A stretch of 32,000 nucleotides of DNA, taken from NCBI GenBank assembly GCA_963662715.1, contig OY759724.1, positions 1,380,001-1,412,000 on the forward strand, in the 5' to 3' direction. Source of the DNA: Candidatus Omnitrophota bacterium (GTDB lineage Bacteria; Omnitrophota; Gorgyraeia; Zapsychrales; JANLHA01). Within the stretch, counting starts at the first letter, position 1, and the number at the start of each line of letters is the position of its first letter. A program made the translations under genes and the position numbers. Below are positions 1,999 through 16,900 of this stretch, piece after piece. Under the pieces are notes generated by a model. That model made no database searches, was not told where the DNA came from, and was given only the letters and a program-made list of their open reading frames with translations.

Positions 1999-3237
1999 AT
2001 GCCTAAAAAACAAGTGACGGGGAATACTTCCTCCACCATTTCGCAAAAGGAAGAATTGACGATTCTCAGGCAAATTGTGGATATTACGTCTGCGGAAATG
2101 GATCTTTCCCGCATTTTAAAAGAAGTCGTTCACATCGTAAACCAGGTGATGAAGGCGGATTCGGTCTTTATTTATCTTTTTGACGAGGGCAAAAAGAAAT
2201 TAACTTTAATGGCGTCCAAAATCCCCCATAAAAAGATGCTGGGCCAGATTGTGCTTAAAGTCGGAGAAGGGATTACCGGATGGGTCGCCAAAGAAAATAA
2301 GCCGGTGGCCATCAGTAAAAACGCTTATCAGGATGCGCGTTTTAAAGGTTTCGATGTCCTGAAAGAGGACCAGTATGAAGCCTTTTTGTCCGTTCCGATC
2401 GTGTATAAAGGGAAAGCCATCGGGGTTATCAATGTTCAGCACAAAAAACCGCATCAGTATTCAACGCAGACAGTGAATTTAATACGCACAATCGCCAAAC
2501 AGGTGGGCGGGGTGATTGAGCATGCCATGCTTTATGAGCAGACCAAATTAAAGGCGATGCAGCTGGACAGTTTGGTCAAAGTAAGTCAATCCATTACGTC
2601 GGAGAATTATCTGGATGAAATTTTAAACTTGATTGTTGTTGTAACGGCGGAAATGCTGAATTCCAAAATTTGCTCTATCATGTTGCTGGGTGGCCACAAG
2701 CAGGAGGAACTGGTTATTAAGGCCACGCAGAGCTTAAGCCAGGAGTATAAGCAGAAGCCGAACCTGAAAGTGGACCGGAGCCTTTTGGGTGAAGTTATTA
2801 AACAGAAGCAACCCTTAATGGTCCCGGATGTGCGGGAAGAGCAAAAGTATTTTTACCGCGACTTGGCGGAGAAGGAGAATTTGACATCTATGATCGCCGT
2901 TCCCATGATTGTCAAAGATAAGGCCATCGGCGTCATCAACGTCTACACGAAAAAGCCGCATACCTTTACGGCCGAGGAAACCGGGGTGCTGCAGATGGTG
3001 GCTAACCAGGCGGCTGTGGCCGTGGAGAACACAAACTTGATGCAGGAGGCCTTAAAAGCCAAGGAGGCCCTGGAAACGCGCAAGTTGATCGAGCGAGCTA
3101 AAGGGATCCTGATGCGGTTAAACCATCTTTCTGAACAGGCGGCCTACCGGTTGATTCATAAAAAGAGCATGGATACCTGCCGGTCCATGAAAGAAATTGC
3201 CGAATCGATTATCTTGATGGATGAGCTGCAGGCCTGA
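1999..3237 (+). CDS. GAF-GAF-ANTAR one-component RNA-binding antitermination regulator (412 aa)
   Basis: I moved the start to ATG 1999 (AGGAG 9 nt upstream); the track ORF 1915.. only adds an unlikely extension. There are two GAF-like modules (...GEGITGWVAKENKPVAI...AIGVINVQHKKPH... and ...LLGEVIKQKQPLMVPDV...AIGVINVYTKKPH...). The C-terminus has a classic ANTAR segment: ETRKLIERAKGILMRLNHLSEQAAYRLIHKKSMDTCRSMKEIAESII. Confidence 0.9.
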   Translation: MPKKQVTGNTSSTISQKEELTILRQIVDITSAEMDLSRILKEVVHIVNQVMKADSVFIYLFDEGKKKLTLMASKIPHKKMLGQIVLKVGEGITGWVAKENKPVAISKNAYQDARFKGFDVLKEDQYEAFLSVPIVYKGKAIGVINVQHKKPHQYSTQTVNLIRTIAKQVGGVIEHAMLYEQTKLKAMQLDSLVKVSQSITSENYLDEILNLIVVVTAEMLNSKICSIMLLGGHKQEELVIKATQSLSQEYKQKPNLKVDRSLLGEVIKQKQPLMVPDVREEQKYFYRDLAEKENLTSMIAVPMIVKDKAIGVINVYTKKPHTFTAEETGVLQMVANQAAVAVENTNLMQEALKAKEALETRKLIERAKGILMRLNHLSEQAAYRLIHKKSMDTCRSMKEIAESIILMDELQA

Positions 3238-3341
3238 AGATGAATGTTTGTGTTGATCCCGGTCATTGTCTCTTGAAAAAATTGCCTGGCGTGCATTATC
3301 GACGAGATAAGCCCGCGGATTAAAATCTTTCAATTAATAAC

Positions 3342-3370
3342 TTGACAAAAGGTTTTTCACAGTCTATATT
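3342..3370 (+). promoter_or_regulatory. Sigma70-like promoter of the porin-amt-glnK operon
   Basis: TTGACA (3342-3347), a 17-nt spacer, then TATATT (3365-3370), with AT-rich sequence upstream. It is nearly the same promoter as the one at 6624..6652 (shared AACTTGACAAA...TTTTTCA...TATAyT). Confidence 0.6.
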
Positions 3371-3373
3371 TGA

Positions 3374-3415
3374 AATAGACCATTGACGGTTTATTATAAC
3401 GGGCATCGAAGTCCG
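3374..3415 (+). promoter_or_regulatory. Candidate ANTAR-target dual hexaloop hairpins (leader 1, module 1)
   Basis: P1 is AGACC[AUUGAC]GGUUU at 3377-3392 and is extendable to 8 bp over 3374-3395. P2 is CGGGC[AUCGAA]GUCCG at 3400-3415. Both loops are 6 nt with A at position 1 and G at position 4. The 3' arm of P2 is the start of the terminator stem at 3411. Confidence 0.5.
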
Positions 3416-3442
3416 GATTCTTAGGTGAGTCCGGGCTTTTTT
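3411..3442 (+). terminator. Intrinsic terminator 1 in leader 1
   Basis: A 10-bp stem GUCCGGAUUC / GAGUCCGGGC (two G-U pairs) with loop UUAGGU, followed by UUUUUU (3437-3442). Confidence 0.65.
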
Positions 3443-3453
3443 GTTTATGCTAT

Positions 3454-3467
3454 GGGCGTTGAAGTCC
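3454..3467 (+). promoter_or_regulatory. GGGC-hexaloop-GUCC hairpin (leader 1, module 2)
   Basis: GGGC[GUUGAA]GUCC. Its last loop base and its 3' arm are the first 5 nt of the terminator stem that starts at 3463. Confidence 0.45.
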
Positions 3468-3505
3468 TCTTCAAGGCAGAAATTCTGCGGAAGAGGACTT
3501 TTTTT
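3463..3505 (+). terminator. Intrinsic terminator 2 in leader 1
   Basis: A perfect 10-bp stem AGUCCUCUUC (3463-3472) / GAAGAGGACU (3490-3499) with an inner 5-bp stem GCAGA/UCUGC, followed by UUUUUU (3500-3505). Confidence 0.7.
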
Positions 3506-3522
3506 GTTTTCCCAGGCAAAGT

Positions 3523-3536
3523 GGGCGACGGGGTCC
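3523..3536 (+). promoter_or_regulatory. Fifth GGGC-hexaloop-GUCC hairpin, between terminator 2 and the porin start
   Basis: GGGC[GACGGG]GUCC. Its 3' side can alternatively pair as GGGUCCAG (3531-3538) / UUGGGCCC (3557-3564). No U-tract follows, so this copy is not attached to a terminator. Confidence 0.35.
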
Positions 3537-3615
3537 AGAACGAGCACAGGCCGCTCTTGGGCCCGCAGACAGGGCAGAGTTGAGGCATAAAATTGACTAA
3601 CATGAAGGAGTAAAG

Positions 3616-4383
3616 ATGAATCGTAAAATTTTAACCCTGACATTCGCCTTATGTGTGCTTGTTCTGTCCGGCCTCGCACCGCAAGCGGAAAGCAAAACCC
3701 TTGTCGGAGATGCGTTAACAGAAAATGGCATCGAAATAGAGCTCAGCGGCAGCACGGATTTTTATTCCAAATATATCTGGCGGGGATTCCGTTTAGATGA
3801 TGACTATGTCTGGCAGCCGGGATTCAGCGTAAGCGGTTACGGATTTGAGGTCAATGTCTGGGGAAGCTTTGACACGGACCAAAACGACGGATTAAGTTCG
3901 GATGAAATTGACACAACAGTCAGTTACAGCCGTGATTTTGAAGACCTGTCTTTGTCCATCGGACACATTTACTATGATTTCCCCTCCGCCGGCACTTTCA
4001 GCAAGGAAATTTTTCTCGGTTTTGCTTATGACACCTTGCTTGCACCCTCGCTGACCTGGTATCACGATTACAGCCGGGAAAGTCAGGGGGGCGGACACGG
4101 TGATTATTTTGTCTTGGATCTCGGACACAGCCTGGAGCTTAATGAAGACTATGGCGTGACTTTGGATCTTGCCGGTCATGTCGGATACAACCGCCGCCTT
4201 TTCATTAACGGGGAAGGCGGGGATGTGGCTTTCAGTGTGGGGCTGACGCTGCCTTTGACGGAAAGTTTAACCATGACGCCCAGTTTGAATTACAGCATAC
4301 CTTACGGCGACCTGGAAGATTCTGGAGACGGTAATCAGGAAGACGAGTTTTACTGGGGTATCGGGTTAAGTTATAGTTTCTAA
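3616..4383 (+). CDS. TorF / Gcw_chp (TIGR02001-like) outer-membrane beta-barrel protein, putative porin
   Basis: AAGGAG SD. Signal peptide MNRKILTLTFALCVLVLSGLAPQAES. An N-terminal ...SKYIWRGFRL...QPGFSVS..GFEVNVWGS... pattern matches my memory of the family signature (SdYvfRG...Q.g......Gf..g.W.S). It has alternating beta-strand character and a C-terminal ...GLSYSF aromatic OMP terminus. Confidence 0.7.
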   Translation: MNRKILTLTFALCVLVLSGLAPQAESKTLVGDALTENGIEIELSGSTDFYSKYIWRGFRLDDDYVWQPGFSVSGYGFEVNVWGSFDTDQNDGLSSDEIDTTVSYSRDFEDLSLSIGHIYYDFPSAGTFSKEIFLGFAYDTLLAPSLTWYHDYSRESQGGGHGDYFVLDLGHSLELNEDYGVTLDLAGHVGYNRRLFINGEGGDVAFSVGLTLPLTESLTMTPSLNYSIPYGDLEDSGDGNQEDEFYWGIGLSYSF

Positions 4384-4439
4384 AAGAATAAAGACCTGGG
4401 ATCTGACAGCGGACGGCTTCAGATCGGAAGGAGGATAAG

Positions 4440-5828
4440 ATGTTAATAAAATTGTTAAAGAATATGCCGATGCTTGTTTTTTTGCTGAGCATGGGATTGC
4501 TGCTTTGTGCCAGCCCTGGTTTGGCTGAAGAGCCGACCGTGGCAGGGAATGCGGAAGCCATTGCGGAAAAAGGCGTGGCTTTGGACACGGTGTGGACATT
4601 GTTGGCCGGTATTCTGGTTATGTTCATGCAGGCGGGTTTTGCTATGGTCGAGACGGGTTTTACCCGGGCGAAGAACGCCTGTAATATCATGATGAAAAAC
4701 TTGTTGGATTTTGCTGTCGGTTCGATCGTGTATTGGGCCGTAGGTTTCGGGATTATGTTCGGGGCCGGGAACTTGTTCTTTGGATCAAGCGGCTTTTTCC
4801 TGATGGATTCAGGGGCGACCTTTGCGTCCTTAGACTGGAGTACGGTGCCTCTTTATTGTAAATATTTCTTCCAGATGGTTTTTGCCGCTACGGCAGCGAC
4901 CATTGTTTCCGGGGCGATGGCCGAACGGACAAAATTTCAGGCCTACCTTCTTTTCAGTGTGGTTATCAGCGCTCTTATTTATCCGGTTGTCGGTCACTGG
5001 ATATGGGGCGGCGGCTGGTTAGCGGAAATGGGAATGTGGGATTTTGCCGGTTCAACGGTTGTCCATTCAACCGGAGCCTGGGTGGCCTTGACGGGGGCTA
5101 TTTTGTTAGGGCCCCGGGTCGGAAAATATAATCCGGATGGCTCATCCAATGCGATTCCCGGTCACAGCATCCCCTTAGCTTCTTTAGGTGTTTTTATCCT
5201 TTGGTTTGGCTGGTACGGTTTTAATCCGGGCAGCACCATGGGCGCTGTTCCGGAGATAGCGCATATCGCGACAACGACAACGTTAGCCGCCGCTGCCGGT
5301 GTTATTTCGGCCATGTATATGGCGTGGATCATGTTTTCCAAACCGGATATTTCCATGGCTTTAAACGGCGGTTTGGCAGGTTTGGTCGGCATTACGGCCG
5401 GATGTGCTTTTGTTTCACCGTTGAGCGCCGTGATCATCGGCCTTATTGCCGGCATCCTGGTGGTTCTGGCTGTTGTTATGTTTGATAAAGTTTTTCATAT
5501 TGATGATCCTGTCGGTGCCGTATCTGTCCACGGCGTCTGCGGGGCCTGGGGCACGATTGCTGTCGGTTTGTTTGCCCAGGATGTTTTTGCCCCGGGGACA
5601 ACGGGCAATGGTCTGTTCTTTGGCGGCGGAAGCAAACTGCTTATGTCTCAGATCGCAGGGGTTGCTTCGGTTATGGTCTGGTGTTTTGTGACCGGATTTA
5701 TCCTTTTCTCGGTGATTAAAGCAACGGTCGGATTGCGGGTCAGCAAGGAAGAAGAACTGAGAGGTCTGGATATAGACGAACACGGGATGGAAGCTTACTC
5801 CGGGTTCCAGATTTTCACGACAGAATAA
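4440..5828 (+). CDS. amt: Ammonium transporter (Amt family), copy 1
   Basis: GGAAGGAGG SD and a signal-like N-terminus. Amt hallmarks are present: DTVWTLLAGILVMFMQAGFAMVETG, YPVVGHWIWGGGWL, FAGSTVVH, NPGS, DDPVGAVSVHG. Confidence 0.95.
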   Translation: MLIKLLKNMPMLVFLLSMGLLLCASPGLAEEPTVAGNAEAIAEKGVALDTVWTLLAGILVMFMQAGFAMVETGFTRAKNACNIMMKNLLDFAVGSIVYWAVGFGIMFGAGNLFFGSSGFFLMDSGATFASLDWSTVPLYCKYFFQMVFAATAATIVSGAMAERTKFQAYLLFSVVISALIYPVVGHWIWGGGWLAEMGMWDFAGSTVVHSTGAWVALTGAILLGPRVGKYNPDGSSNAIPGHSIPLASLGVFILWFGWYGFNPGSTMGAVPEIAHIATTTTLAAAAGVISAMYMAWIMFSKPDISMALNGGLAGLVGITAGCAFVSPLSAVIIGLIAGILVVLAVVMFDKVFHIDDPVGAVSVHGVCGAWGTIAVGLFAQDVFAPGTTGNGLFFGGGSKLLMSQIAGVASVMVWCFVTGFILFSVIKATVGLRVSKEEELRGLDIDEHGMEAYSGFQIFTTE

Positions 5829-5873
5829 ACATCGGGATATTTGGGCTGCTGTTTGAATATCAAGGAGGTACAT

Positions 5874-6029
5874 ATGCGACATAAACCAAGGAATAGATTA
5901 TACGTTCGGATGTCACCTCAAGCGTTAAGAGCTAGAAAGGAAAATCAGCACGAGCTGTTTGTTCTTGTCCCAGTGAAAAACAAGCGGCACATATATATAG
6001 GCAAAAAATACTTTTCTCATTTTAACTAG
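5874..6029 (+). CDS. Candidate 51-aa very basic small protein in the amt1-glnK1 spacer
   Basis: ATG 5874 lies 5 nt after a strong AAGGAGG (5862-5868). Translation: MRHKPRNRLYVRMSPQALRARKENQHELFVLVPVKNKRHIYIGKKYFSHFN (7 Arg, 6 Lys, 2 acidic). Caveats: it uses AGA/AGG/ATA codons, has no recognisable family, and could be non-coding. Confidence 0.3.
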   Translation: MRHKPRNRLYVRMSPQALRARKENQHELFVLVPVKNKRHIYIGKKYFSHFN

Positions 6030-6098
6030 GAAATGCCTCTTCGGCAGGATCTTATTAAATTAGGGATCAGATATTTGATATTAAAGGAGGGGATTCTC

Positions 6099-6440
6099 AT
6101 GAAATTGATAATTGCAATGGTACAGCCGCATAAGCTGCCTGATGTCAAGAAGGAGCTTTTTGATGCGGATGTTCATAAAATGACTGTTACGAATGTTGTG
6201 GGGTGTGGGCAACAGAAAGGGTTCAGCGAAACCTATCGGGGCGTTGTCCACGAAGTGAATCTTTTGAAGAAAGTCCGGCTGGAAATTGCCGTGAACGAAG
6301 ATTTTGTCAAGCCTACGATTGCTGCTATTATCCGCGGAGCGAAATCCGGCAAGATCGGAGACGGCAAAATTTTTGTCCTTGATCTTCCGGAATGTATCAG
6401 GATTCGTACCGGCGAGAAAGGCAATGACGCCATCGGCTGA
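6099..6440 (+). CDS. glnK: PII nitrogen regulatory protein (GlnK type, amt-linked), copy 1
   Basis: The start is set at ATG 6099 (AGGAGG upstream); the track ORF 6033.. is an upstream extension. The protein is 113 aa and aligns without gaps to canonical PII (MTVT, GxGxQKG, YRG, KVxxE, GDGKIF, RIRTGE). Confidence 0.95.
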
Positions 6441-6488
6441 CGTCCTTTGGTAAGGAGGGACACCGGCCTAGGTCAAAATGATATTCCC

Positions 6489-6575
6489 TATGGCCCCGTT
6501 GAGAGGCACAGAGCTTCCCCTCCGTGAAACATTCCTGAGATTATATCTTGGGAGAAATCTCTTAACGGGGCCATA
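6489..6575 (+). other. 87-nt extended hairpin / long inverted repeat downstream of glnK1
   Basis: 6489-6506 pairs with 6558-6575 over 18 consecutive bp (16 Watson-Crick plus 2 G-U; the core is ATGGCCCCGTT / AACGGGGCCAT). It encloses 51 nt with further small stems. There is no clean U-tract after it. Confidence 0.45.
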
Positions 6576-6623
6576 TTCTCGTTTAGCGGTGTACGTTATT
6601 GGGTCAGAAGACGTAAAAAAAAC

Positions 6624-6652
6624 TTGACAAACAATTTTTCAGCGAGTATACT
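6624..6652 (+). promoter_or_regulatory. Sigma70-like promoter of the second amt-glnK operon
   Basis: TTGACA (6624-6629), a 17-nt spacer, then TATACT (6647-6652), with an A-run upstream. It is a paralogue of the promoter at 3342..3370. Confidence 0.6.
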
Positions 6653-6660
6653 TTTTTTAA

Positions 6661-6705
6661 CAAGAGCAACGAGGTTCTTGTGTAATTTAGCGGGCAAAGA
6701 TGTCC
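6661..6705 (+). promoter_or_regulatory. Candidate ANTAR-target dual hexaloop hairpins (leader 2, module 1)
   Basis: P1 is CAAGAGC[AACGAG]GUUCUUG at 6661-6680 (7 bp, one G-U). After an 11-nt linker, P2 is GGGC[AAAGAU]GUCC at 6692-6705. Both hexaloops have A at position 1 and G at position 4. The 3' arm of P2 overlaps the terminator stem. Confidence 0.5.
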
Positions 6706-6740
6706 TCAATAGGCTTAAGATAAGCCGTTGAGGATTTTTT
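6702..6740 (+). terminator. Intrinsic terminator 1 in leader 2
   Basis: Stem (G)UCCUCAA 6702-6709 / UUGAGGA(U) 6728-6735 with an inner stem GGCUU/AAGCC, followed by a U-run to 6740. Confidence 0.6.
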
Positions 6741-6751
6741 ATTGATGATAA

Positions 6752-6765
6752 GGGCATAGGCGTCC
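6752..6765 (+). promoter_or_regulatory. GGGC-hexaloop-GUCC hairpin (leader 2, module 2)
   Basis: GGGC[AUAGGC]GUCC. Its loop and 3' arm form the first 8 nt of the terminator stem that starts at 6758. Confidence 0.45.
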
Positions 6766-6803
6766 TTGTTAAGCGAAGAAGCTTTTCAAGGGCGCCTTTT
6801 TTT
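6758..6803 (+). terminator. Intrinsic terminator 2 in leader 2
   Basis: An 11-bp stem AGGCGUCCUUG (6758-6768) / CAAGGGCGCCU (6787-6797) with one G-U, and an inner hairpin AAGC[GAAGAA]GCUU, followed by UUUUUU (6798-6803). Confidence 0.7.
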
Positions 6804-6839: not shown

Positions 6840-8177
6840 ATGAAAAAAGGAAAAAGGGTTAAACAGTGGGGGATTCTTGCATTTGTTCTGTGTTGCCTTT
6901 GTCCCACGCTCGCTTATGCGGAAGAAACAATCACAATCAGTACAGCCGGGTTGGACACGTTATGGGTTATGATCGCTGCATTCATGGTTTTCATTATGCA
7001 GGCAGGGTTCGGTATGCTGGAGGCCGGATTGATCCGGACAAAAAACACCTGTAATGTTCTTATGAATAATTTTTTGGATTTTTGTATGGCTTCTATGGGA
7101 TTTTTTATGTTTGGCTTTGCCCTGATGTTCGGGGCCGGAAACGGTTTTATCGGGACCAAGGGTTTTTTCCTGATTGATGCCGTATCTGACGGGCATTTAC
7201 CTTTATATGCAGAATGGTTTTTTCATGCGGTTTTCTGCGGAGCAGCAGCGACAATCGTTGCTGGCGGGGTTGCTGAGAGAATGAAATTTAAAGCTTACTT
7301 AATGTATTCGTTTATTATTTCTGCCACCGTTTATCCCGTTGTCGGGCACTGGATTTGGGGGGGAGGATGGCTTTCGAACCTGAATTTTGCCGATTTTGCC
7401 GGTTCAACCGTGGTCCATGCTGTCGGAGGCACGGCGGCTTTGGCCGGAACATATGTTTTGGGGCCGAGGATAGGGAAATACAACAAGGACGGGTCGGCGA
7501 ATGCGATTGAAGGGCATTCTATGACACTGGCATCTTTAGGGACATTAATTCTTTGGTTCGCCTGGTTTGGTTTTAATCCCGGCTCAACGTTAAGCGTCGG
7601 GGACGGAAGCGCCATCGCGCACGTTGCGGTTACGACGAATATGTCCGCTGTCGCCGGAGGTTTAACCGGCATGTTCTTTGCCTGGCATAAGTTCGGCAAG
7701 CCTGATTTGACCATGACCATGAACGGAGCTTTGGCCGGTTTAGTGGCGATTACGGCTCCCTGCGCTTTTGTGACCCCTTTAGAGGCGATTGTTATCGGGT
7801 CTATCGGCGGGATTATTGTCGTCATTGGCACGATTTTTCTGGATAAAATTCATATTGATGATCCGGTCGGCGCTGTTCCTGTTCATGCCATGAACGGCTT
7901 ATGGGGGACTTTGGCGGTCGGTATTTTTGGACACAAATCTTTAGGCTTGGCCAGAGACGGATTGCTGCACGGCGGCGGTTTTGCGCAGCTTGGCGTGCAG
8001 GCTTTGGGCGTTGTGACCGTTATGCTCTTTGTCGGCACGGTGATGCTTGTCGTCTTTAAAGCGCTTGATCATTTTGTCGGGTTACGGGTGACTCGGGAGG
8101 AAGAACTGAAAGGGTTGGATATCAGCCTGCACGGCATGGAAGCCTACTCCAGTTTTCAGGTTTTTACAACGCAATAA
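6840..8177 (+). CDS. amt: Ammonium transporter (Amt family), copy 2
   Basis: AGGAGGGGAGG SD and a signal peptide. It carries the same Amt hallmarks as copy 1 (MQAGFGMLEAG, YPVVGHWIWGGGWL, FAGSTVVH, DDPVGAVPVH) and a C-terminal ...GMEAYSSFQVFTTQ parallel to copy 1. Confidence 0.95.
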   Translation: MKKGKRVKQWGILAFVLCCLCPTLAYAEETITISTAGLDTLWVMIAAFMVFIMQAGFGMLEAGLIRTKNTCNVLMNNFLDFCMASMGFFMFGFALMFGAGNGFIGTKGFFLIDAVSDGHLPLYAEWFFHAVFCGAAATIVAGGVAERMKFKAYLMYSFIISATVYPVVGHWIWGGGWLSNLNFADFAGSTVVHAVGGTAALAGTYVLGPRIGKYNKDGSANAIEGHSMTLASLGTLILWFAWFGFNPGSTLSVGDGSAIAHVAVTTNMSAVAGGLTGMFFAWHKFGKPDLTMTMNGALAGLVAITAPCAFVTPLEAIVIGSIGGIIVVIGTIFLDKIHIDDPVGAVPVHAMNGLWGTLAVGIFGHKSLGLARDGLLHGGGFAQLGVQALGVVTVMLFVGTVMLVVFKALDHFVGLRVTREEELKGLDISLHGMEAYSSFQVFTTQ

Positions 8178-8229
8178 AAAATTTATGAAAGATAGGCTTC
8201 AGTGATCTTTATTAAAGGAGGGGAATGAT

Positions 8230-8571
8230 ATGAAGCTGGTTATAGCTATGATACAACCGCATAAACTGCCGGATGTAAAAAAGGCTTTGTTTGATGCTGA
8301 TGTGCATAAAATGACCGTCACCAATGTTCTCGGATGCGGTCAGCAGAAAGGGTTCAGCGAAACCTACCGGGGTGTCGTTCATGAAGTGAATCTGTTGAAA
8401 AAAGTCCGGCTGGAAATTGCCGTGAACGAAAATTTCCTGGACGCCACCATCAAAGCCATTATTAAAGGGGCTAAAACAGGAAAGATCGGGGACGGGAAGA
8501 TTCTGGTCCTTGATTTACAGGACTGTATCAGGATCCGGACCGGAGAAAAAGGGCGGGAGGCCATAGGATAA
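8230..8571 (+). CDS. glnK: PII nitrogen regulatory protein (GlnK type), copy 2
   Basis: AAGGAGGGG SD. The protein is 113 aa. I count 16 differences from copy 1 across 113 positions. Confidence 0.95.
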
Positions 8572-8705
8572 TGTTCGTTGCCGTTTTTATCAGTGTTGGC
8601 ATTGTTGTGGGTGTTTCCCTGGCCATAAAACATTTTTGGCGACGGGTATTTTATACAAGAGAGGATCTCGTTAATGCTTTAAAACGTAATTTTAACGAAT
8701 CGTAG
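8571..8705 (+). CDS. Candidate 44-aa single-TM small protein translationally coupled to glnK2
   Basis: Its ATG overlaps the glnK2 stop (TAATG, 8569-8573), and GGGAGG lies 10 nt upstream. Translation: [44 protein letters not shown] (one TM helix plus a charged tail). It is below the ORF-track size cutoff. Confidence 0.4.
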   Translation: MFVAVFISVGIVVGVSLAIKHFWRRVFYTREDLVNALKRNFNES

Positions 8706-8744
8706 AGGAATGCCGTTGTGCAGAGCAGGGAAAGGAGAAGAGAT

Positions 8745-8843
8745 ATGTCGACGTTGGTTATGCATAAGGGGAACGGAACACCAAAGACCCCGGAAGATGT
8801 TGTAAAGCTTGTCAAAGAAAACAGTCTTTATTTTGATGTCTAA
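8745..8843 (+). CDS. 32-aa ORF resembling the extreme N-terminus of type I glutamine synthetase (a relic or a small/leader peptide)
   Basis: GGAG lies 7 nt upstream of ATG 8745. Translation: MSTLVMHKGNGTPKTPEDVVKLVKENSLYFDV. The ..EDVVKLVKEN..YF.. segment recalls GS-I N-termini such as ..[19 protein letters not shown].. (from memory). No GS-like continuation appears in any frame downstream. Confidence 0.3.
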   Translation: MSTLVMHKGNGTPKTPEDVVKLVKENSLYFDV

Positions 8844-8975
8844 CCATTAACAACAAGACAGGACTTTGAGTCCTAAAAACATTTCCTCTTTGGAGCTTCA
8901 TTGCTTATAATATTCCCTGAAAAAGGGGGACAACAAAGAAGCCTTATTTGAGGAAATGTTAAAACGGAGGGGAAA

Positions 8976-11081
8976 ATGGAAGAAATGTACGAACAAAAAA
9001 CAAACCAAACTGTTGCTGAGATTTACGGTCAGAATGTTTTCAGCCTCAAGGTGATGCGCAATTACCTGTCGGAGAAAGCGTATCAATCCTTGAGCAAAAC
9101 CATCAAAGACGGCGGGCCTCTTGATCCGGGGATTGCTGATGAAGTCGCCGATGCCATGAAAACATGGGCGATTTCAAAAGGGGCGACTCATTTTACGCAC
9201 TGGTTTCAGCCCTTAACGGGAACGACGGCCGAAAAACACGACTCCTTTATTGCTCCGGACGGAGAGGGCGGCGTGATACTGGAATTTTCCGGGAAGGAAT
9301 TGATCCAGGGCGAACCGGATGCCTCGAGTTTTCCTTCCGGGGGATTGCGTCCCACATTTGAAGCCAGAGGGTATACAGGATGGGACCCGACAAGTCCGGC
9401 CTTTATCAAGGAAGGGCCACAATGCGCTACGTTATGTATTCCGACCTATTTCATCGGGTGGAACGGCGAAGCTTTGGATAAGAAATCACCTCTTCTTCGC
9501 TCCATGAAAGCCCTTTCCAAGCAGGTTTGTCGGTTAGCCGAAATTTTCGGCATCTCCACGAGAGGTAAACGGGCTTACGCCACTTTAGGCGGTGAGCAGG
9601 AATATTTTCTGATCGACAAGGAGTTTTATCTGCAGCGCATTGACCTGGTTCAAACAGGCCGTACGCTCTTCGGCAAAGAACCGGCCAAGCATCAACAGAT
9701 GGCCGATCATTATTTCGGCGCCATCAAAGGCCGGGTCATGGGATTCATGGAAGATTTTGACCGGGAGATGTGGAGGCTGGGCGTTCCGACCACCACGCGT
9801 CATAATGAAGTGGCGCCGGGGCAGTATGAAGTGGCGCCGGTTTTTGAAAGTCTGAACCTGGCGGTTGATCACAACATGCTTTGTATGGAAGTGATGAAAC
9901 GCGTCGCAGAGAAACATGGCATGGTCTGTCTTTTGCATGAAAAGCCATTTGCCGGCATCAACGGGTCGGGCAAGCATAATAACTGGGCTATTGTCGGGCC
10001 TGATGGAAAGAACTGGCTGGATCCGGGTGATAACCCTCATGAAAATGCCAAGTTCCTCGTCATGCTCTGCGCCGTCATCAAAGCCGTGGATACTTACGCC
10101 GAAGCTTTACGCGCTTCCGTGGCCTCTGCCGGAAACGATCATCGTCTGGGGTCTCATGAAGCGCCTCCGGCGATTATCTCCATATTTTTAGGCGAACAGT
10201 TAACGGATATCATTGAACAGATTGAGAAAGGGGAAGCCAAGAGCTCGAAATCCGGCGGTGTTTTGGAAATAGGCGTGGATTCTCTGCCGACCCTGCCGAG
10301 GCACGCGACGGACCGCAACCGGACATCCCCGTTTGCCTTTACGGGTTCCAAATTTGAATTTCGTGCCGTGGGTTCCAACATGAGCCTCGCCGGGCCGAAC
10401 ATTATTCTCAATACGATTGTGGCTGACGCTCTGGATGAGATCTGTTCGAAGTTGCAGCGAGACCTGTCGGCGAAGAAGGACCTGAACAGCGCTATTCAGA
10501 AAGTTTTAAAGAGTATTATCAAAGAGCATAAGAGAATTATCTTTAACGGCGATAATTATACGGAAGACTGGCTGAAGGAAGCGACCAAGCGAAAACTTCC
10601 GAATTTGAAAACAACCCCCGAAGCTTTGGCGGCTATGAAGAATCCGGATGTCGTGGCTCTTTTTGAACGTCATGGTGTCTTGAGCAAAAAAGAGCTGATG
10701 TCCCGCAATGAAGTTTATCTGGAAGGGTACAACACAACGATTGATTACGAAGCCAAACTTGCCGCGGACATGGCCAAGACCCTGATTTTCCCGGCTGTCT
10801 TTAATTATCAGGAGGAATTGGCTAACAGCATTAAGTCAGCGGAGGCCGTCAATAAAGTTAAATCCCCTGCCGCCCGGAAGTTGCTTTTGGAAATCACCAA
10901 AGAATTGGAGACAGCTTTGAAGAAAACGGATAAGCTGGAGGGCGCTATCCGCAAGGCTGACAGCTTAAAAACCAAAGCGGCTATGGATGACTTGCGCGTG
11001 ACCGTAGACCGTTTGGAGGGCTTGGTTCCTGCTGATTACTGGCCGTTACCGTCTTACGCCGAAATGCTGTTTATTGTTTAA
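8976..11081 (+). CDS. glnN: Glutamine synthetase type III (GlnN)
   Basis: The 701-aa length is typical of GS-III. It has the N-terminal ..[26 protein letters not shown].. region, the [10 protein letters not shown] and [13 protein letters not shown] motifs, NGSGKHNNW, and a long C-terminal helical extension. Confidence 0.93.
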
Positions 11082-11879: not shown

Positions 11880-12069
11880 GTGTTTGCTTTGACCATCGGG
11901 TATAATCTGACGCCGCCTTGTTTCTCCGGAACACCGTCCTTGTTTAAACCATCTTCGTTTCAGGTGTTTTCTTAGAATGAAAAAGTCAATATCTGACTGA
12001 GGATCTGCGCACGGCCGCTGTCCCGGGAACAACGGCTGCCAGAAAGTTTTATTTAACAGTTGATTAGAA

Positions 12070-13749
12070 ATGATACGAATTGCTTTAGCCCAAATGAATG
12101 CCATTGTCGGTGATCTGGAAGGAAACCGGCAGAAAATTTTGCAGTTTATCCGGCAGGCCAGGGATAATGACGCTGATATGGTGATTTTCCCTGAACTGGC
12201 TGTTTGCGGATATCCGCCGGAGGACCTGCTGTTTAAGGACCATTTTGTCCAAGACAGCCTTAAGGCTTTAAAGGCGTTGAGTAAAGACGTTTCCGATATC
12301 ACCGTTGTTGTCGGTTATGTTGATCAGGATCAGAAGAAAAATATTTATAATGCTGCGGCTGTTATTCAGGATAAAAAAATCTGCGGCCGATATTTTAAAC
12401 AAAAATTACCCAATTACGGCGTGTTTGATGAAAAGCGTTACTTCACGGAAGGGCAGGAGAATTCATCCTTTCAGCTCAACGGAATTGTTTTCGGTCTCAG
12501 TATTTGCGAGGATCTCTGGACGGATGGGCCTTTGTTGAAACAGCAGATCAAACAGAAATTACAGCTTGTCGTGAATCTGGCCGCTTCTCCCTATGACTAC
12601 GGGAAACTCGAACAGCGGGAAAAAATTCTCAAGGACAGAGCCCGCCGGACGAACGCGTATGTCTGTTATTCCAACCTTGTGGGAGGCCAGGATGAGCTTG
12701 TTTTTGACGGAGGAAGCGTTATCGTCAATCAGCAGGGCCGGATCATTGCTCAGGGGAAGCAGTTTGAAGAAGATCTGGTTGTCGTGGACCTGCCTTTGAA
12801 CCCGGTGGCCAAGAAAAGAAGATCCCCGCAGGGGTGCATTGACCTGGGGGTGAAGACCAAGACCTTGAAATGTCCTTTAATACCGCATAAAGAGCGGCGG
12901 TACAGCCGCATGGAACGGGTTTTTCATGCTTTGGTGTTAGGGACGCGTGATTATGTCAGGAAAAACGGTTTCCAAAAAGTCGTTATAGGTTTAAGCGGGG
13001 GGATTGATTCCTCTTTGGTGGCCGCCGTCGCCTCGGAAGCTGTCGGGCATGAAAATGTTATCGGCATCTCCATGCCGTCTCATTTCACGTCTTCCGGCAC
13101 AAAAAAAGACGCTAAGATTCTGGCGGAGAATTTGAAGATAAAGTTTATTGAGATTTCTATTGAGCGAATTTTTAAAGCTTATCTGGATGAATTAGCCGTG
13201 CATTTTTCCGGCCTGCCGTTTAATGTGGCCGAGGAAAATATTCAGGCCCGTATTCGGGGAAATATTTTAATGGGATTTTCCAATAAGTTCGGCTGGCTGG
13301 TTTTGAACACAGGGAATAAAAGTGAAGTGGCTGTGGGGTACTGCACCCTTTATGGCGATCTGGCCGGAGGGTTTGCGGTGATAAAGGATATCCCTAAGAT
13401 GCAAGTTTTTAAATTGGTTAAATTTATAAACAGCAAGCATGCCGTTGTCCCGGAAACGGTCTTGACCAGGGCGCCTTCTGCCGAATTGCGAAACGATCAG
13501 AAAGATCAGGATACCCTGCCTCCCTATGAAGAATTGGACCGCCTGCTGAAGGCCTATGTCGAACAGCATCATTCTTTGATTCAGATGCAGAAAATCAGTA
13601 AGAACAAGGCGAAAATCCAGGATATTATTCGTATGGTGGACCAGAGTGAATATAAACGCCGGCAATCCCCCCCGGGGATAAAAATATCTACCCGGGCTTT
13701 CGGAAAAGACTGGCGGCTGCCCATTACAAACGGATATAGAGAGGATTGA
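12070..13749 (+). CDS. nadE: Glutamine-dependent NAD+ synthetase (CN-hydrolase domain plus NAD synthetase domain)
   Basis: The N-terminal nitrilase-type domain has MIRIALAQMN.., FPELAVCGYPPEDL and ICEDLW. The C-terminal domain has the PP-loop GLSGGIDSS and the conserved ..YKRRQSPPGIK.. tail. Confidence 0.92.
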   Translation: MIRIALAQMNAIVGDLEGNRQKILQFIRQARDNDADMVIFPELAVCGYPPEDLLFKDHFVQDSLKALKALSKDVSDITVVVGYVDQDQKKNIYNAAAVIQDKKICGRYFKQKLPNYGVFDEKRYFTEGQENSSFQLNGIVFGLSICEDLWTDGPLLKQQIKQKLQLVVNLAASPYDYGKLEQREKILKDRARRTNAYVCYSNLVGGQDELVFDGGSVIVNQQGRIIAQGKQFEEDLVVVDLPLNPVAKKRRSPQGCIDLGVKTKTLKCPLIPHKERRYSRMERVFHALVLGTRDYVRKNGFQKVVIGLSGGIDSSLVAAVASEAVGHENVIGISMPSHFTSSGTKKDAKILAENLKIKFIEISIERIFKAYLDELAVHFSGLPFNVAEENIQARIRGNILMGFSNKFGWLVLNTGNKSEVAVGYCTLYGDLAGGFAVIKDIPKMQVFKLVKFINSKHAVVPETVLTRAPSAELRNDQKDQDTLPPYEELDRLLKAYVEQHHSLIQMQKISKNKAKIQDIIRMVDQSEYKRRQSPPGIKISTRAFGKDWRLPITNGYRED

Positions 13750-13908
13750 TTTTTAGGCTTTAAATCTTAGTGATTGGGAAAAAATACTTTACGGTATTTT
13801 AGAATTTGTTTGAGCGATATTTTTGTCTTAACATATTGAAATAAATGGTTTTTTAAAAACAGGTGCCTGAAGTATTCATGAAATCATACGGCAGGGAAAT
13901 GTTTTTTC

Positions 13909-13936
13909 TTGTAATTATAATATTTATTAATATAAT
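13909..13936 (+). promoter_or_regulatory. Possible sigma70-like promoter for gltBD in a very AT-rich spacer
   Basis: TTGTAA (13909-13914), a 16-nt spacer, then TATAAT (13931-13936). The region is so AT-rich that hexamer matches are weak evidence. Confidence 0.25.
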
Positions 13937-13997
13937 ATTTTTAAAATTTTAACCGTTAAAAATAATAAAACCTTAAATCGGCAGGGAATAATTTCAA

Positions 13998-16900
13998 ATG
14001 AACAGTGATTTGACAATGAAAAAGCAAGGCCTTTATGATCCCTTCTTTGAACATGACAGTTGCGGGGTGGGGTTTGTGGTCAATGTGAAAGGGCAGAAAA
14101 CCCATGAAATCGTCAGGAATGGCATTCAGATTCTCGAGAACTTAACTCATAGAGGGGCAACAGGATGTGATCCTAATACAGGAGACGGGGCCGGCCTGCT
14201 TATTCAAATTCCGGATGCTTTTTTCAGGAAAGAATGCGCTGAAATTCAGATTGATCTGCCTCCTTTGGGTGATTATGGTGTCGGGAACGTTTTTCTACCG
14301 ACCAATTTAGAATCCCGCAACATTATGGAGGAATGGACCGAAAAGCTTATTTATGAAGAAGGTCAGCGATTTTTGGGGTGGAGGGAAGTCCCCCGGGATA
14401 ACAAGAAAATAGGCCATGTAGCGCGCTCTGTTGAACCTGCCATTAAGCAGCTTTTTATCGGCCGGGGCCCAAAGACCTCTCCGGAAGCCTTTGAGTTGAA
14501 ATTATACGTTATCCGCAAGCGTCTTTATAATAAAGTCCGAGCCTCTGATCTTGAACAGAAAAAATATTATTATTTTTGCAGTTTGAGCCATAAAACAATT
14601 GTTTACAAAGGCCAGCTCATGGCTGAACAATTGAATGATTATTATCGGGATTTGACAGACCAGGCCATGGTTTCAGCTTTAGCGCTTGTTCACTCCCGCT
14701 ACAGCACCAATACGTTTCCCACCTGGGATTTAGCTCACCCGTTCCGTATTCTTGCTCATAATGGAGAAATCAATACCCTAAGAGGCAATATTAACTGGAT
14801 GAATACCCGGGAGCAGCAGTTTGTTTCCGAGGCTTTTGGCGATGATATCAAGAAAATTCTTTCTATTTGTATGCCTCATGGCAGTGATTCGGCTAACTTT
14901 GACAATGCTCTGGAATTTTTAACTCTTGCCGGAAGATCATTGCCTCATGCCGTTATGATGATGATTCCCGAAGCCTGGAGCGGGCATGAGAGCATGCCGG
15001 AAGAAAAGAAAGCTTTTTATGAATACCATTCGTGTTTGATGGAGCCTTGGGACGGTCCGGCATCGATCGCTTTTACGGACGGCCGGTATATCGGGGCTGT
15101 CCTGGACCGCAACGGGTTGCGTCCGTCACGGTACTGGGTCACGAAAGATGATGTTGTCATTATGGCCTCAGAAACAGGTGTTATGGATGTCCCTCCGGAG
15201 AATGTCAAGATTAAGGGGCGTCTGCAGCCGGGCAAGATGTTTCTTGTTGATACGGAGCAGGGGCGCATTATCGATGATGCTGAGCTGAAACATGAATATG
15301 CCAACCGGAAACCTTATGCTCAATGGCTTAAGGAGCAGGTTGTTGACCTTCAGTCCCTTCCTCAGCCGAAAAAAGTTTTTGGCTTTGATGAGCAGAAATT
15401 GCTGGAACGTCAGCGGGCCTTCGGGTACACTTTGGAAGATTTAAAATTGATCCTGGAGTCTATGGCCATTCACGGTGTCGAGGCTACAGGGGCCATGGGG
15501 GCGGATACGCCGTTAGCTGTTTTAAGCCGGCGGCCGCAGCTGTTATTCCATTATTTTAAACAATTGTTTGCCCAGGTGACGAACCCTCCGGTGGACGCCA
15601 TTCGTGAAGAAGTCGTTATGGCCGAGGATGTCATGCTGGGCCCGGAAGGGAACCTTTTGGAGGAGACGAAAGAGCATTGTCACCGGTTAAGGTTAAAGCG
15701 CCCGATATTAACCAACACGGAATTGGAAAAAATACGCAACGTCAATACCGGAGAGTTAAAATCATGTACGCTTTCGACTTTATTTGAATCCAGGGCCGGA
15801 GCCGAAGGGCTTGAGCCGGCATTAGACAGCCTCTTTGCCCAGGCGGATGACGCTATTCAGCAGGGCTCTTCCATCTTGATTCTTTCTGACCGCTCGATGG
15901 ACCGGGAGCATGTTCCCATGCCGTCTCTTTTAGCTTGTGCCGGACTGCATCATCATCTGATTCGCCGGGGAACGCGCACCAAGGTCAGCCTGGTGCTGGA
16001 AACCGGGGAGGCGCGGGAAATGCATCATTTTGCGGTCTTAATCGGATACGGAGCCAATGCCGTTAATCCTTATCTGGCTTTTGAAACCGTTGAGAACGAG
16101 GTTCGCCAGGGCCGGTTTCCTTCGGATATGACGGTTGATCAGGCGATTAAGAATTATTTGAAATCAACCCGGAAGGGGTTGTTTAAAATTTTGTCCAAGA
16201 TGGGCATTTCTACAATTCAGTCTTATTGCGGCGCACAGATTTTTGAGGCCGTAGGCCTCGGGGAGGAATTGATTCATAAATATTTTACCGCAACGCCTTC
16301 GAGGATCGGCGGGGTTGGACTCCAGGAGATCGCGCAGGAAATGATCGAGCGGCATCAGTACGCTTATCCGCAAGGCAATAGTTATGACGGCATGCTGGAT
16401 GTCGGAGGATTTTATCAATGGCGGGAAGGCGGAGAACATCATCAATGGAATCCGGAAACAGTGGCTTTGCTGCAGTTCGCCGTGCGCAGCGGTGATTATA
16501 ATATCTATAAGAAATATGCGAAACTGATCAACTCCCAGGAAACGAACCTGGCGTCTATCCGGGGTTTGCTGAAATTCAAAAAAGGGAACCCCATACCGGT
16601 TGATGAGGTTGAGCCTGCCTCTGAAATTCTGAAGCGTTTTGCAACAGGGGCGATGAGTTACGGTTCGATTTCCAAAGAGGCCCACGAGACTTTGGCCGTG
16701 GCCATGAACCGTCTGGGAGGATTTTCGAATACCGGTGAAGGCGGGGAAGATCCGGAAAGGTTCAAGCCTCTGCCCAACGGCGATTTAAAGCGCAGCCGTA
16801 TTAAACAGGTTGCCCAGGGACGGTTCGGAGTCACCATCGAGTATTTGGTTAATTCAGACCAGATGCAGATTAAAATGGCGCAGGGGGCTAAACCCGGCGA

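Follow-up and report, generated by a model that had tools for sequence, protein, structure and literature searches.

How are the amt operons of Candidatus Omnitrophota switched on and off? The question is raised by a 32,000-nucleotide (nt) stretch of one genome of this phylum (GenBank assembly GCA_963662715.1, contig OY759724.1, positions 1,380,001 to 1,412,000 of the forward strand; hereafter the window), which a Pfam domain search of its genes identifies as a nitrogen-assimilation cluster. Each of its two amt operons is preceded by a leader in which short hairpins with loops of six nucleotides (hexaloops) overlap intrinsic terminators, and the gene next to the first leader encodes a protein with two GAF domains and one ANTAR domain. 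Judged from the sequences compared here, it is very likely that both leaders are protein-dependent ANTAR-type transcription attenuators controlling the amt operons, and the adjacent GAF-GAF-ANTAR protein almost certainly reads their hairpins.

Two amt leaders built from stacked hairpins and terminators

A preliminary description of this DNA, made from its letters alone, had reported a series of elements upstream of porin-amt1-glnK1. They comprised a promoter, a hairpin P1 followed after 7 nt by a hairpin P2 with A at loop position 1 (A1) and G at position 4 (G4), a terminator with a tract of six uridines (U6) that overlaps P2, a second hairpin that overlaps a second terminator with U6, and a third copy of the hairpin. 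All of them are present in what we call leader 1, at the positions given in Table 1. The 3' arm of P2 is at the same time the first 5 nt of terminator 1, which is the minimum-free-energy state of the leader, and 11 nt separate the U-tract of this terminator from the next antiterminator hairpin, A2. A second leader, located at 6624-6803 before amt2-glnK2 and outside the earlier finding, has the same two-module layout. In both leaders, module 1 shows the canonical order of P1, linker and P2 (3377-3415 and 6660-6705), with linkers of 7 and 10 nt, respectively.

Both leaders are conserved hairpin for hairpin in a group of related loci, L086-L089, whose regulators are 82-86% identical to that of the window, and the terminator stems change there and stay paired. 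In leader 1, the two promoter hexamers are invariant in L086-L088, P1 is conserved in L086-L089 (L013 has the near-identical CAGACC[AUUGAU]GGUUUG), and A2 is kept with a loop beginning with G (G1) in L086-L088 and with an A1 loop in L089. The stem of terminator 2 is altered yet still paired in L086 and L087. In leader 2, the L086 version of P1 is ACAAGAGC[AAUGAA]GUUCUUGU, and the base of the terminator 2 stem covaries (GGCGUCC/GGGCGCC in the window vs GACGUCC/GGACGUC in L086). Conservation of the leader hairpins upstream of amt in relatives, a check proposed in the preliminary description, was found in L086-L088. A promoter-like site at 3370-3397 was set aside: it is a consensus match alone and overlaps P1, and the relatives conserve 3342-3370 instead.

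The pattern GGGCN6GTCC, which had been suggested as a search string, was run on the 32 kb window with both strands considered. It matches five times, always on the plus strand and always within the two amt leaders (3401, 3454, 3523, 6692 and 6752), against a shuffled expectation of 1.18; five matches were reached in 1 of 100 shuffles. When one mismatch is allowed, the extra matches lie solely in coding sequence and appear at the chance rate. A terminator-linked scan of the window returned four modules, all in the two amt leaders, and further modules are absent from the regions upstream of the regulator gene (region 1600-2000), of the genes for type III glutamine synthetase (GSIII; region 8572-8975) and glutamine-dependent NAD synthetase (NadE; region 11880-12070), and of gltB (region 13750-13998). 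All seven hairpin loops of the window are 6 nt long and carry G4; five begin with A and two with G. The 3' arm of the hairpin doubles as the 5' arm of a terminator in four of the five copies, and the remaining copy, A3, overlaps a hairpin with no U-tract behind it.

Folding had been proposed as a check for leader 1, which is more stable than its own shuffles (z = -4.0); leader 2 reaches z = -6.3. In both leaders, the minimum-free-energy state is the one with the terminators formed. The four intrinsic terminators of the leaders have a G/C-rich stem directly before the U-tract. The terminator scanner accepts loops of up to 8 nt; terminator 1 was the only one that it listed in the leaders, the others having longer loops. 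Antiterminator hairpins of -3.4 to -5.8 kcal/mol stand against terminators of -16.5 to -24.5 kcal/mol with U6 to U7, so that termination is the predicted default state of both leaders and a factor would be needed to hold the hairpin closed.

Table 1. Positions in the window of the regulator gene, the elements of the two leaders and the operons that they are predicted to control.
Feature	Position	Strand	Description	Basis
Regulator gene	1999-3237	+	GAF-GAF-ANTAR, 412 amino acids	Pfam, PDB similarity
Leader 1 promoter	3342-3370	+	Sigma-70-type; TTGACA 3342-3347, 17-nt spacer, TATATT 3365-3370	11/12 consensus positions
Leader 1 P1	3377-3392	+	AGACC[AUUGAC]GGUUU, putative recruitment hairpin of module 1	-3.1 kcal/mol
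Leader 1 P2 (hairpin A1)	3400-3415	+	Antiterminator CGGGC[AUCGAA]GUCCG	-5.8 kcal/mol
Leader 1 terminator 1	3411-3442	+	10-base-pair stem including G-U pairs 3411-3436, U6 3437-3442	-16.5 kcal/mol
Leader 1 A2	3454-3467	+	Antiterminator GGGC[GUUGAA]GUCC, no upstream P1	-4.2 kcal/mol
Leader 1 terminator 2	3463-3505	+	Perfect 10-base-pair stem AGUCCUCUUC/GAAGAGGACU 3463-3499, U6 3500-3505	-21.2 kcal/mol
Leader 1 A3 (third copy)	3523-3536	+	GGGC[GACGGG]GUCC, before the porin start codon	Sequence
Hairpin overlapping the GUCC arm of A3	3530-3564	+	12 base pairs, no U-tract after it	-16.6 kcal/mol
Predicted controlled operon 1	3616-6440	+	Porin-like Gcw_chp gene 3616-4383, amt1 4440-5828, PII/glnK1 about 6100-6440	Pfam
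Leader 2 promoter	6624-6652	+	TTGACA, 17 nt, TATACT	11/12 consensus match
Leader 2 P1	6660-6681	+	ACAAGAGC[AACGAG]GUUCUUGU	-8.3 kcal/mol
Leader 2 hairpin A1	6692-6705	+	Antiterminator GGGC[AAAGAU]GUCC	Sequence, fold energy
Leader 2 terminator 1	6703-6740	+	Stem 6703-6734, U6	-16.8 kcal/mol
Leader 2 A2	6752-6765	+	Antiterminator GGGC[AUAGGC]GUCC, no upstream P1	Sequence, fold energy
Leader 2 terminator 2	6759-6803	+	Stem 6759-6796, U7	-24.5 kcal/mol
Predicted controlled operon 2	6840-8571	+	amt2 6840-8177, PII/glnK2 8230-8571	Pfam

The regulator and its predicted hexaloop target in related loci

The regulator belongs to a family of more than 4,900 proteins at E <= 1e-20, and the named members are almost all from Candidatus Omnitrophota. 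We collected 90 related loci, nearly all of them on metagenome contigs or in metagenome-assembled genomes, with regulators 47-86% identical to that of the window; module counts cover 80 loci out of at least 580 related loci confirmed by a metagenome scan. Hairpin-plus-T-run terminators were located first, and then hexaloop hairpins overlapping the 5' base of a terminator; the terminator set includes false terminators within genes and is therefore a conservative but imperfect control. Among 526 terminators, such a hairpin was found 86 times on the strand of the regulator vs 5 times on the opposite strand. With the family stem pattern added, the 80 loci hold 97 modules on the regulator's strand vs none on the other. 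The first module lies no more than 700 nt past the regulator stop codon in 41 of the 80 loci. Downstream of the modules lie amt, porin-amt, PII, GSIII, small open reading frames (ORFs), at times the regulator gene, and NadE, which is the usual target in the distant clade. The ANTAR reading put forward in the preliminary description is strengthened by this survey: it now combines the GAF-GAF-ANTAR neighbour, the G4 hexaloops and the terminator overlap with the finding that 59 of the 80 loci have at least one module by an orthologous regulator before nitrogen-assimilation genes.

The loop was then left unconstrained. Searching for GG[GA]C-N6-GUCC followed by a T-run gave 90 matches, with G4 in all 90, A or G at position 1 in 87 and A1 in 71; the opposite strand gave two matches, neither with G4. 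ANTAR proteins recognize A1 and G4 of the hexaloop, G4 being flipped out onto a Tyr (PMC3369931, PMC8934654). The pattern found here, G4 together with a purine at position 1 (R1), is this recognition signature.

The stem of the family occurs as GGGC/GUCC, GGAC/GUCC, GGGC/GCCC and AGAC/GUCU, which corrects the earlier caveat that it is conserved by sequence and not by covariation. Over 71 distinct sequences, pair 1 is G-C in 65, A-U in 4 and G-U in 2; pair 2 is G-C in 67, A-U in 2 and G-U in 2; and pair 3 is G-U in 42, A-U in 24 and G-C in 5. The 100% pairing in this alignment comes from the way its sequences were selected, and the variety of pair types alone is evidence. The stem type follows the regulator clade (GGGC in the close clade, GGAC in the distant clade), and arrays of two and three modules recur in the close clade (L024, L030, L032, L033).

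The start of the regulator gene is placed at 1999; an ORF finder prolongs the frame to a TTG at 1915. The database contains P0001, a protein of 412 amino acids that is 100% identical to the regulator. Pfam detects two GAF stretches (E 2e-41) and an ANTAR domain (PF03861; E 1.3e-20, 73.4 bits vs a cut-off of 27.3). In a PDB search, the ANTAR domain aligns to EutV (6wsh, E 1.7e-10), Rv1626 and NasR (E 2.6e-7). EutV contacts RNA through a Tyr that stacks on G4 and through Lys143 and Lys147 (PMC8934654). As in EutV, the G4-stacking Tyr is conserved here: when the domain is aligned to 6wsh, its Tyr in ...EEAYQ... falls on that of ...QAAYR..., and the Lys of RK matches a Lys, with an Arg in place of the second Lys. 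The first GAF domain (residues 18-177) is closest to the N-terminal GAF of PtsP/EI-Ntr (3ci6, E 2.6e-22; 3trc, E 4e-17; PDB search). In EI-Ntr, this GAF domain binds glutamine, which thereby controls the protein, a finding reported for EI-Ntr proteins only (PMC4848567). The GAF domains probably respond directly to the nitrogen status of the cell, and the likeness of the first GAF domain to that of PtsP suggests a regulator that is active when nitrogen is scarce.

In the model that we propose, in which RNA binding, read-through, ligand and direction of the response are inferred, a constitutive sigma-70-type promoter would start each leader, and the nascent RNA would form P1 and then the antiterminator hairpin. 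With the regulator inactive, the RNA would fold into two serial terminators and transcription would end near 3442 or 3505 in leader 1 and near 6740 or 6803 in leader 2, leaving little transcript to reach the amt operons. The active state of the regulator is expected under nitrogen limitation because of the predicted regulon. An ANTAR dimer would then bind the R1/G4 hexaloop and keep GUCC paired with GGGC; the bottom 4-5 base pairs of the terminator, beside the U-tract, would be blocked, and the polymerase would read through. The decision would be repeated at the second terminator. Module 2 would presumably rely on protein that module 1 has already brought to the nascent RNA, and in leader 2 it may additionally use a hexaloop that caps its own terminator. 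Two serial decisions would multiply the termination probabilities, resulting in a low basal level and a steep response. Reading the two serial terminators as a tight off-state is reasonable and fits the recurring arrays of two and three modules.

Some loci of the survey differ from the window in the number, position or loop length of their modules. In the distant clade (L042-L084, regulators 47-55% identical) there is typically one module, GGAC[AAYGRC]GUCC plus a terminator, between the regulator gene and NadE. A module lies directly 5' of the regulator gene in L018 (459), L019 (5880), L029 (94) and L038 (2914), and none lies upstream of 1999 in the window; such a position implies putative autoregulation. 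In the amt leaders of one subclade (L002 15909, L004 2587, L012 6956, L013 11967, L015 4305, L016 7654, L017 7654), the loop of the first antiterminator hairpin has 7 or 8 nt, as in GGGC[AAUGACAU]GUCC. A1 and G4, counted from the 5' end of the loop, are retained in this subclade, and a long P1, GUCCGGAGC[AUAGAA]GUUUCGGAC, precedes the hairpin.

Hairpins without an upstream P1 and the alternative readings

The preliminary description had cautioned that modules 2 and 3 of leader 1 have no obvious P1 of their own. This caution holds: no hexaloop hairpin with R1 and G4 lies within 45 nt upstream of A2 in either leader, or of A3. A missing upstream P1 is the norm in the close clade and not an exception, as a P1 hexaloop hairpin is found within 16 nt upstream in 14 of its 53 modules and 39 are without one. 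Fifteen modules are placed only 12-22 nt past the -10 box of a TTGACA/TATAxT promoter and therefore have no room for a P1. They nevertheless keep the full loop signature.

A second hexaloop can be found elsewhere in many of these modules. Twelve of the 15 promoter-proximal modules have an inner R1/G4 hexaloop hairpin at the tip of their own terminator, for example GACC[AGCGAA]GGUU, AUCC[GUUGAA]GGGU or AAAC[AAGGCG]GUUU. Inner hexaloops of this kind occur in 22 of 53 family terminators of the close clade vs 45 of 445 other terminators (p = 5e-8). The 27 distant-clade modules have none; most of them have, by eye, a P1-like hairpin GGAC[AAYGRN]GUCY 20-30 nt upstream. When minimum-free-energy tips alone are counted, the R1/G4 hexaloop is present in 15 of 81 family terminators vs 10 of 445 others, and where the terminator tip is a hexaloop it is of the R1/G4 type in 15 of 21 family terminators vs 10 of 75 others. 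In arrays, the tip hexaloop sits 7-15 nt 5' of the antiterminator hairpin that follows, for which it could act as P1. Within the window, the tip of terminator 2 in leader 2, AAGC[GAAGAA]GCUU (6771-6784), is an ANTAR-type hexaloop that is identical in L086, and module 2 of leader 1 has no tip hexaloop comparable to it. The hexaloop UUAGGU of terminator 1 (G4, U1) was considered as a P1 for module 2 of leader 1 and rejected, being replaced by 7-nt loops in L086 and L087.

The single-hairpin or permuted arrangement is a well-supported observation, for whose functional meaning we offer a hypothesis. It is possible, and we put it forward tentatively, that the Omnitrophota family is a one-component nitrogen sensor, in which a GAF module for glutamine or 2-oxoglutarate is fused to ANTAR and antiterminates at a single hairpin without P1, the recruitment element so far regarded as obligatory. 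The second hexaloop would either have moved to the terminator tip, as a permuted dual-hexaloop, or be dispensable if the protein passes along the hairpin array.

The third copy in leader 1 is a special case. A3 is conserved in L086-L088, where its loop is GACGGG or AUGGGG, and the hairpin at 3530-3564 is conserved in sequence among the relatives, with weak covariation in the four sequences compared. In the three-module amt leader of L033, the third unit, GGGC[AGCGGG]GCCC, does have a terminator with a U-tract. On this comparison, loss of the U-tract from a former module may account for the third unit of the window. Alternatively, A3 might provide an additional binding site, or might switch a process other than intrinsic termination.

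Several points weigh against the attenuator reading of the leaders. EutV needs P1 for antitermination in vivo, and lengthening its linker by 20 nt abolishes antitermination (PMC8934654); modules 2 and the third copy of the window are without an upstream P1; and A3, without a U-tract, cannot work as an intrinsic-terminator switch. Two loops of the window (GUUGAA and GACGGG) begin with G and not with A. Sequence conservation dominates in the stem, with few double-sided changes (6 cells of the alignment). Every comparison locus was picked because it encodes the regulator. Domain similarity is the source of the guesses at the ligand and at the direction of the response. The whole window has no Rfam match at gathering thresholds, and Rfam 15 does not contain the published ANTAR model.

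The points about P1 and A3 also favor an alternative in which only module 1 (P1 plus P2) of each leader works, and A2 and A3 are duplicated relics whose terminators are leaky or act as fixed dampers, A3 having lost its U-tract or never had one. We consider this unlikely. Terminator 2 is the stronger one in both leaders (-21.2 and -24.5 kcal/mol, U6-U7), so an unregulated copy would silence the operon. In addition, A2 is conserved across all close relatives, and the 15 promoter-proximal modules, which have no space for a P1, have intact loops.

A different alternative accepts the hairpins as real antiterminators and gives them another reader, either an ANTAR paralog encoded elsewhere in the genome or an RNA-binding protein controlled by PII, with the neighboring gene serving other targets. 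The window covers 32 kb of a 3.36 Mb genome, and ANTAR hexaloops are alike between systems, the REC-ANTAR protein GnfR of Geobacter recognizing a closely related hairpin. Against this stands the linkage between regulator and motif, which spans regulators 47-86% identical and includes the proximity of the first module to the regulator gene in about half of the loci (41/80). Some modules are located upstream of the regulator gene itself, and the stem type switches with the regulator clade. Another reader is thus improbable, and the adjacent protein remains our preferred one.

That the leaders act independently of any protein, as a metabolite riboswitch, by leader-peptide attenuation or as tandem terminators with coincidental hairpins, is very improbable: the lack of an Rfam match makes an undescribed RNA class conceivable, but the conserved element is, at 14 nt, too small a hairpin to form a ligand pocket, a leader ORF is absent, each terminator is placed between a conserved promoter and the genes that it would block, the invariant G4 and the R1 hexaloop fit the ANTAR recognition rule, and the Rfam matches are far below threshold (PyrR at 31 bits vs 54, L20 leader). 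Readings as a known leader or riboswitch were dropped, as permissive Rfam scans of 3300-3650 and 6430-6640 returned only these sub-threshold matches, MicC and a snoRNA, which we treat as chance or terminator-driven.

Known ANTAR systems and the surrounding locus

ANTAR antitermination is a widespread control of nitrogen genes. To our knowledge, the ANTAR regulators studied so far are linked to REC, NIT or AmiC only. GAF-ANTAR is nevertheless among the commonest ANTAR architectures (PMC12591593), and our literature searches found no GAF-ANTAR antiterminator characterized after 2012 and no relevant study of Omnitrophota.

In Geobacter sulfurreducens, the ANTAR protein GnfR antiterminates the glnK/amtB and nif leaders via the conserved site CAGGCAANGGCGCC (Ueki and Lovley 2010, PMC2995071). 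Like the system proposed here, GnfK/GnfR uses an ANTAR protein against early termination in nitrogen-gene leaders, that of glnK-amtB among them. The site CAGGCAANGGCGCC is a short G/C stem with an A1/G4 hexaloop that overlaps a terminator, and it is very close to the GGRC[AAYGRC]GUCC of the present family. GnfR, however, belongs to the phosphorylated response regulators of the REC-ANTAR type, works with a separate kinase and has promoters that depend on RpoN/GnfM. The Omnitrophota system has a one-component GAF-GAF-ANTAR protein, promoters that look sigma-70-type, and modules stacked two or three deep.

The eut sites read by EutV/EutW in Enterococcus faecalis (Ramesh 2012, PMC3369931; Walshe 2022, PMC8934654) share with module 1 of the window the succession of P1, linker and P2 with A1/G4 hexaloops, and the 3' arm of P2 is common to an intrinsic terminator. 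The linkers of 7 and 10 nt compare with 5-12 nt in eut, whereas the distant clade has 20-30 nt. Unlike EutV, which needs P1, the present family has close-clade modules that mostly (39/53) do without it. Its antiterminator stem is nearly fixed (GGGC/GUCC), its sensor is GAF-GAF and not REC, and its targets are genes of nitrogen assimilation and not of ethanolamine use.

A survey with an ANTAR covariance model found matches before amt, PII, glutamine synthetase and glutamate synthase genes in many phyla (Ramesh 2012, PMC3369931). Two of these matches lie in tandem, 28 nt apart, before one ammonia permease-PII operon of Pelotomaculum thermopropionicum, and Desulfotomaculum acetoxidans has 13 matches in 6 transcription units (Ramesh 2012 Table S2, PMC3369931). 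Unlike many sites described here, those of the two Firmicutes are all dual hairpins, because the model requires so. The survey included no Omnitrophota genomes and explicitly left GAF-ANTAR proteins as uncharacterised (PMC3369931).

NasR at nasF and AmiR at amiE are also one-component, ligand-controlled ANTAR antiterminators of nitrogen-related operons. They differ in having a NIT sensor or a pseudo-receiver with an AmiC partner, a single attenuator per operon, and nitrate or amides as signals. Tandem riboswitches and T-boxes likewise place several termination decisions in one leader, which gives a sharper response and a lower basal level. In those, the RNA itself senses the ligand or tRNA, whereas in the model proposed here a protein would read each unit.

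ANTAR attenuators before amt/glnK are already known, and the present one is not a new class of mechanism. What is distinctive is the GAF-GAF one-component sensor, the uncultured phylum, the near-fixed GGGC/GUCC stem, the modules routinely stacked in twos or threes, the frequent lack of P1 and the many tip hexaloops. At this locus, a GAF-GAF-ANTAR protein stands beside a predicted RNA target that is compact, clear and highly specific, which offers an entry point to GAF-ANTAR signaling. In addition, the predicted regulon of amt, glnK, GSIII and NadE represents a concrete model of nitrogen control for Omnitrophota, a phylum with essentially no genetics. The locus bears on whether a PtsP-like GAF domain could couple glutamine or 2-oxoglutarate to RNA binding, whether an ANTAR protein could antiterminate without P1, and whether stacked attenuators would give a sharper response. 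Should the ordinary reading alone be right, the locus adds another member to the ANTAR nitrogen regulons, helpful for annotation and unsurprising.

Regarding the genes around the leaders, the order porin-amt1-glnK1 of operon 1 is kept in L086-L088. Operon 2 is followed by genes for GSIII, a class-I amidotransferase, NadE, GltB and GltD and, farther along, CarA and CarB. In L089, the whole leader 1 cassette (promoter, P1, two modules and a degraded third copy; 9460-9990) is fused about 300 nt 5' of GSIII, and the porin-amt-glnK-amt genes are missing. The cassette of attenuators apparently travels as one piece. In L002-L004, L009 and L015-L017, an ORF of about 70 codons, with a C-terminal ...EDW.(Q/E)AE.IV... 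motif in its product, lies between the regulator gene and the amt leader and carries its own P1-less module upstream; the window does not contain this ORF.

The spacer between amt1 and glnK1 (5829-6099) measures 270 nt vs 55-85 nt in L086 and L087, and contains no terminator-like site. It holds a non-conserved frame of 43 codons that begins with an ATG at 5874 and is still open at 6002, and it is probably an insertion. A 32-codon ORF, MSTLVMHKGNGTPKTPEDVVKLVKENSLYFDV, is located at 8745-8843, about 130 nt 5' of GSIII. Neither this ORF nor that at 5874-6002 has a counterpart in any of the related loci. The PEDVVKLVKEN...F stretch of the former resembles the N-terminus of type I glutamine synthetases, and the ORF may be a gene remnant.

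Finally, a long imperfect hairpin, GGCCCCGUUGAGAGG...CUCUUAACGGGGCC with the invariant core GAGCUUCCCCUCCGUGAAA, occupies 6496-6582, between the stop codon of glnK1 (6440) and the promoter of leader 2. It has no U-tract and no Rfam match, and it is missing in L087 and L088, where the glnK-amt gap is 64-118 nt. Its counterpart in L086 (about 12270-12365) preserves the structure via seven double-sided compensatory changes, and the hairpin could be an unannotated structured RNA or a 3'-end stabilizer.

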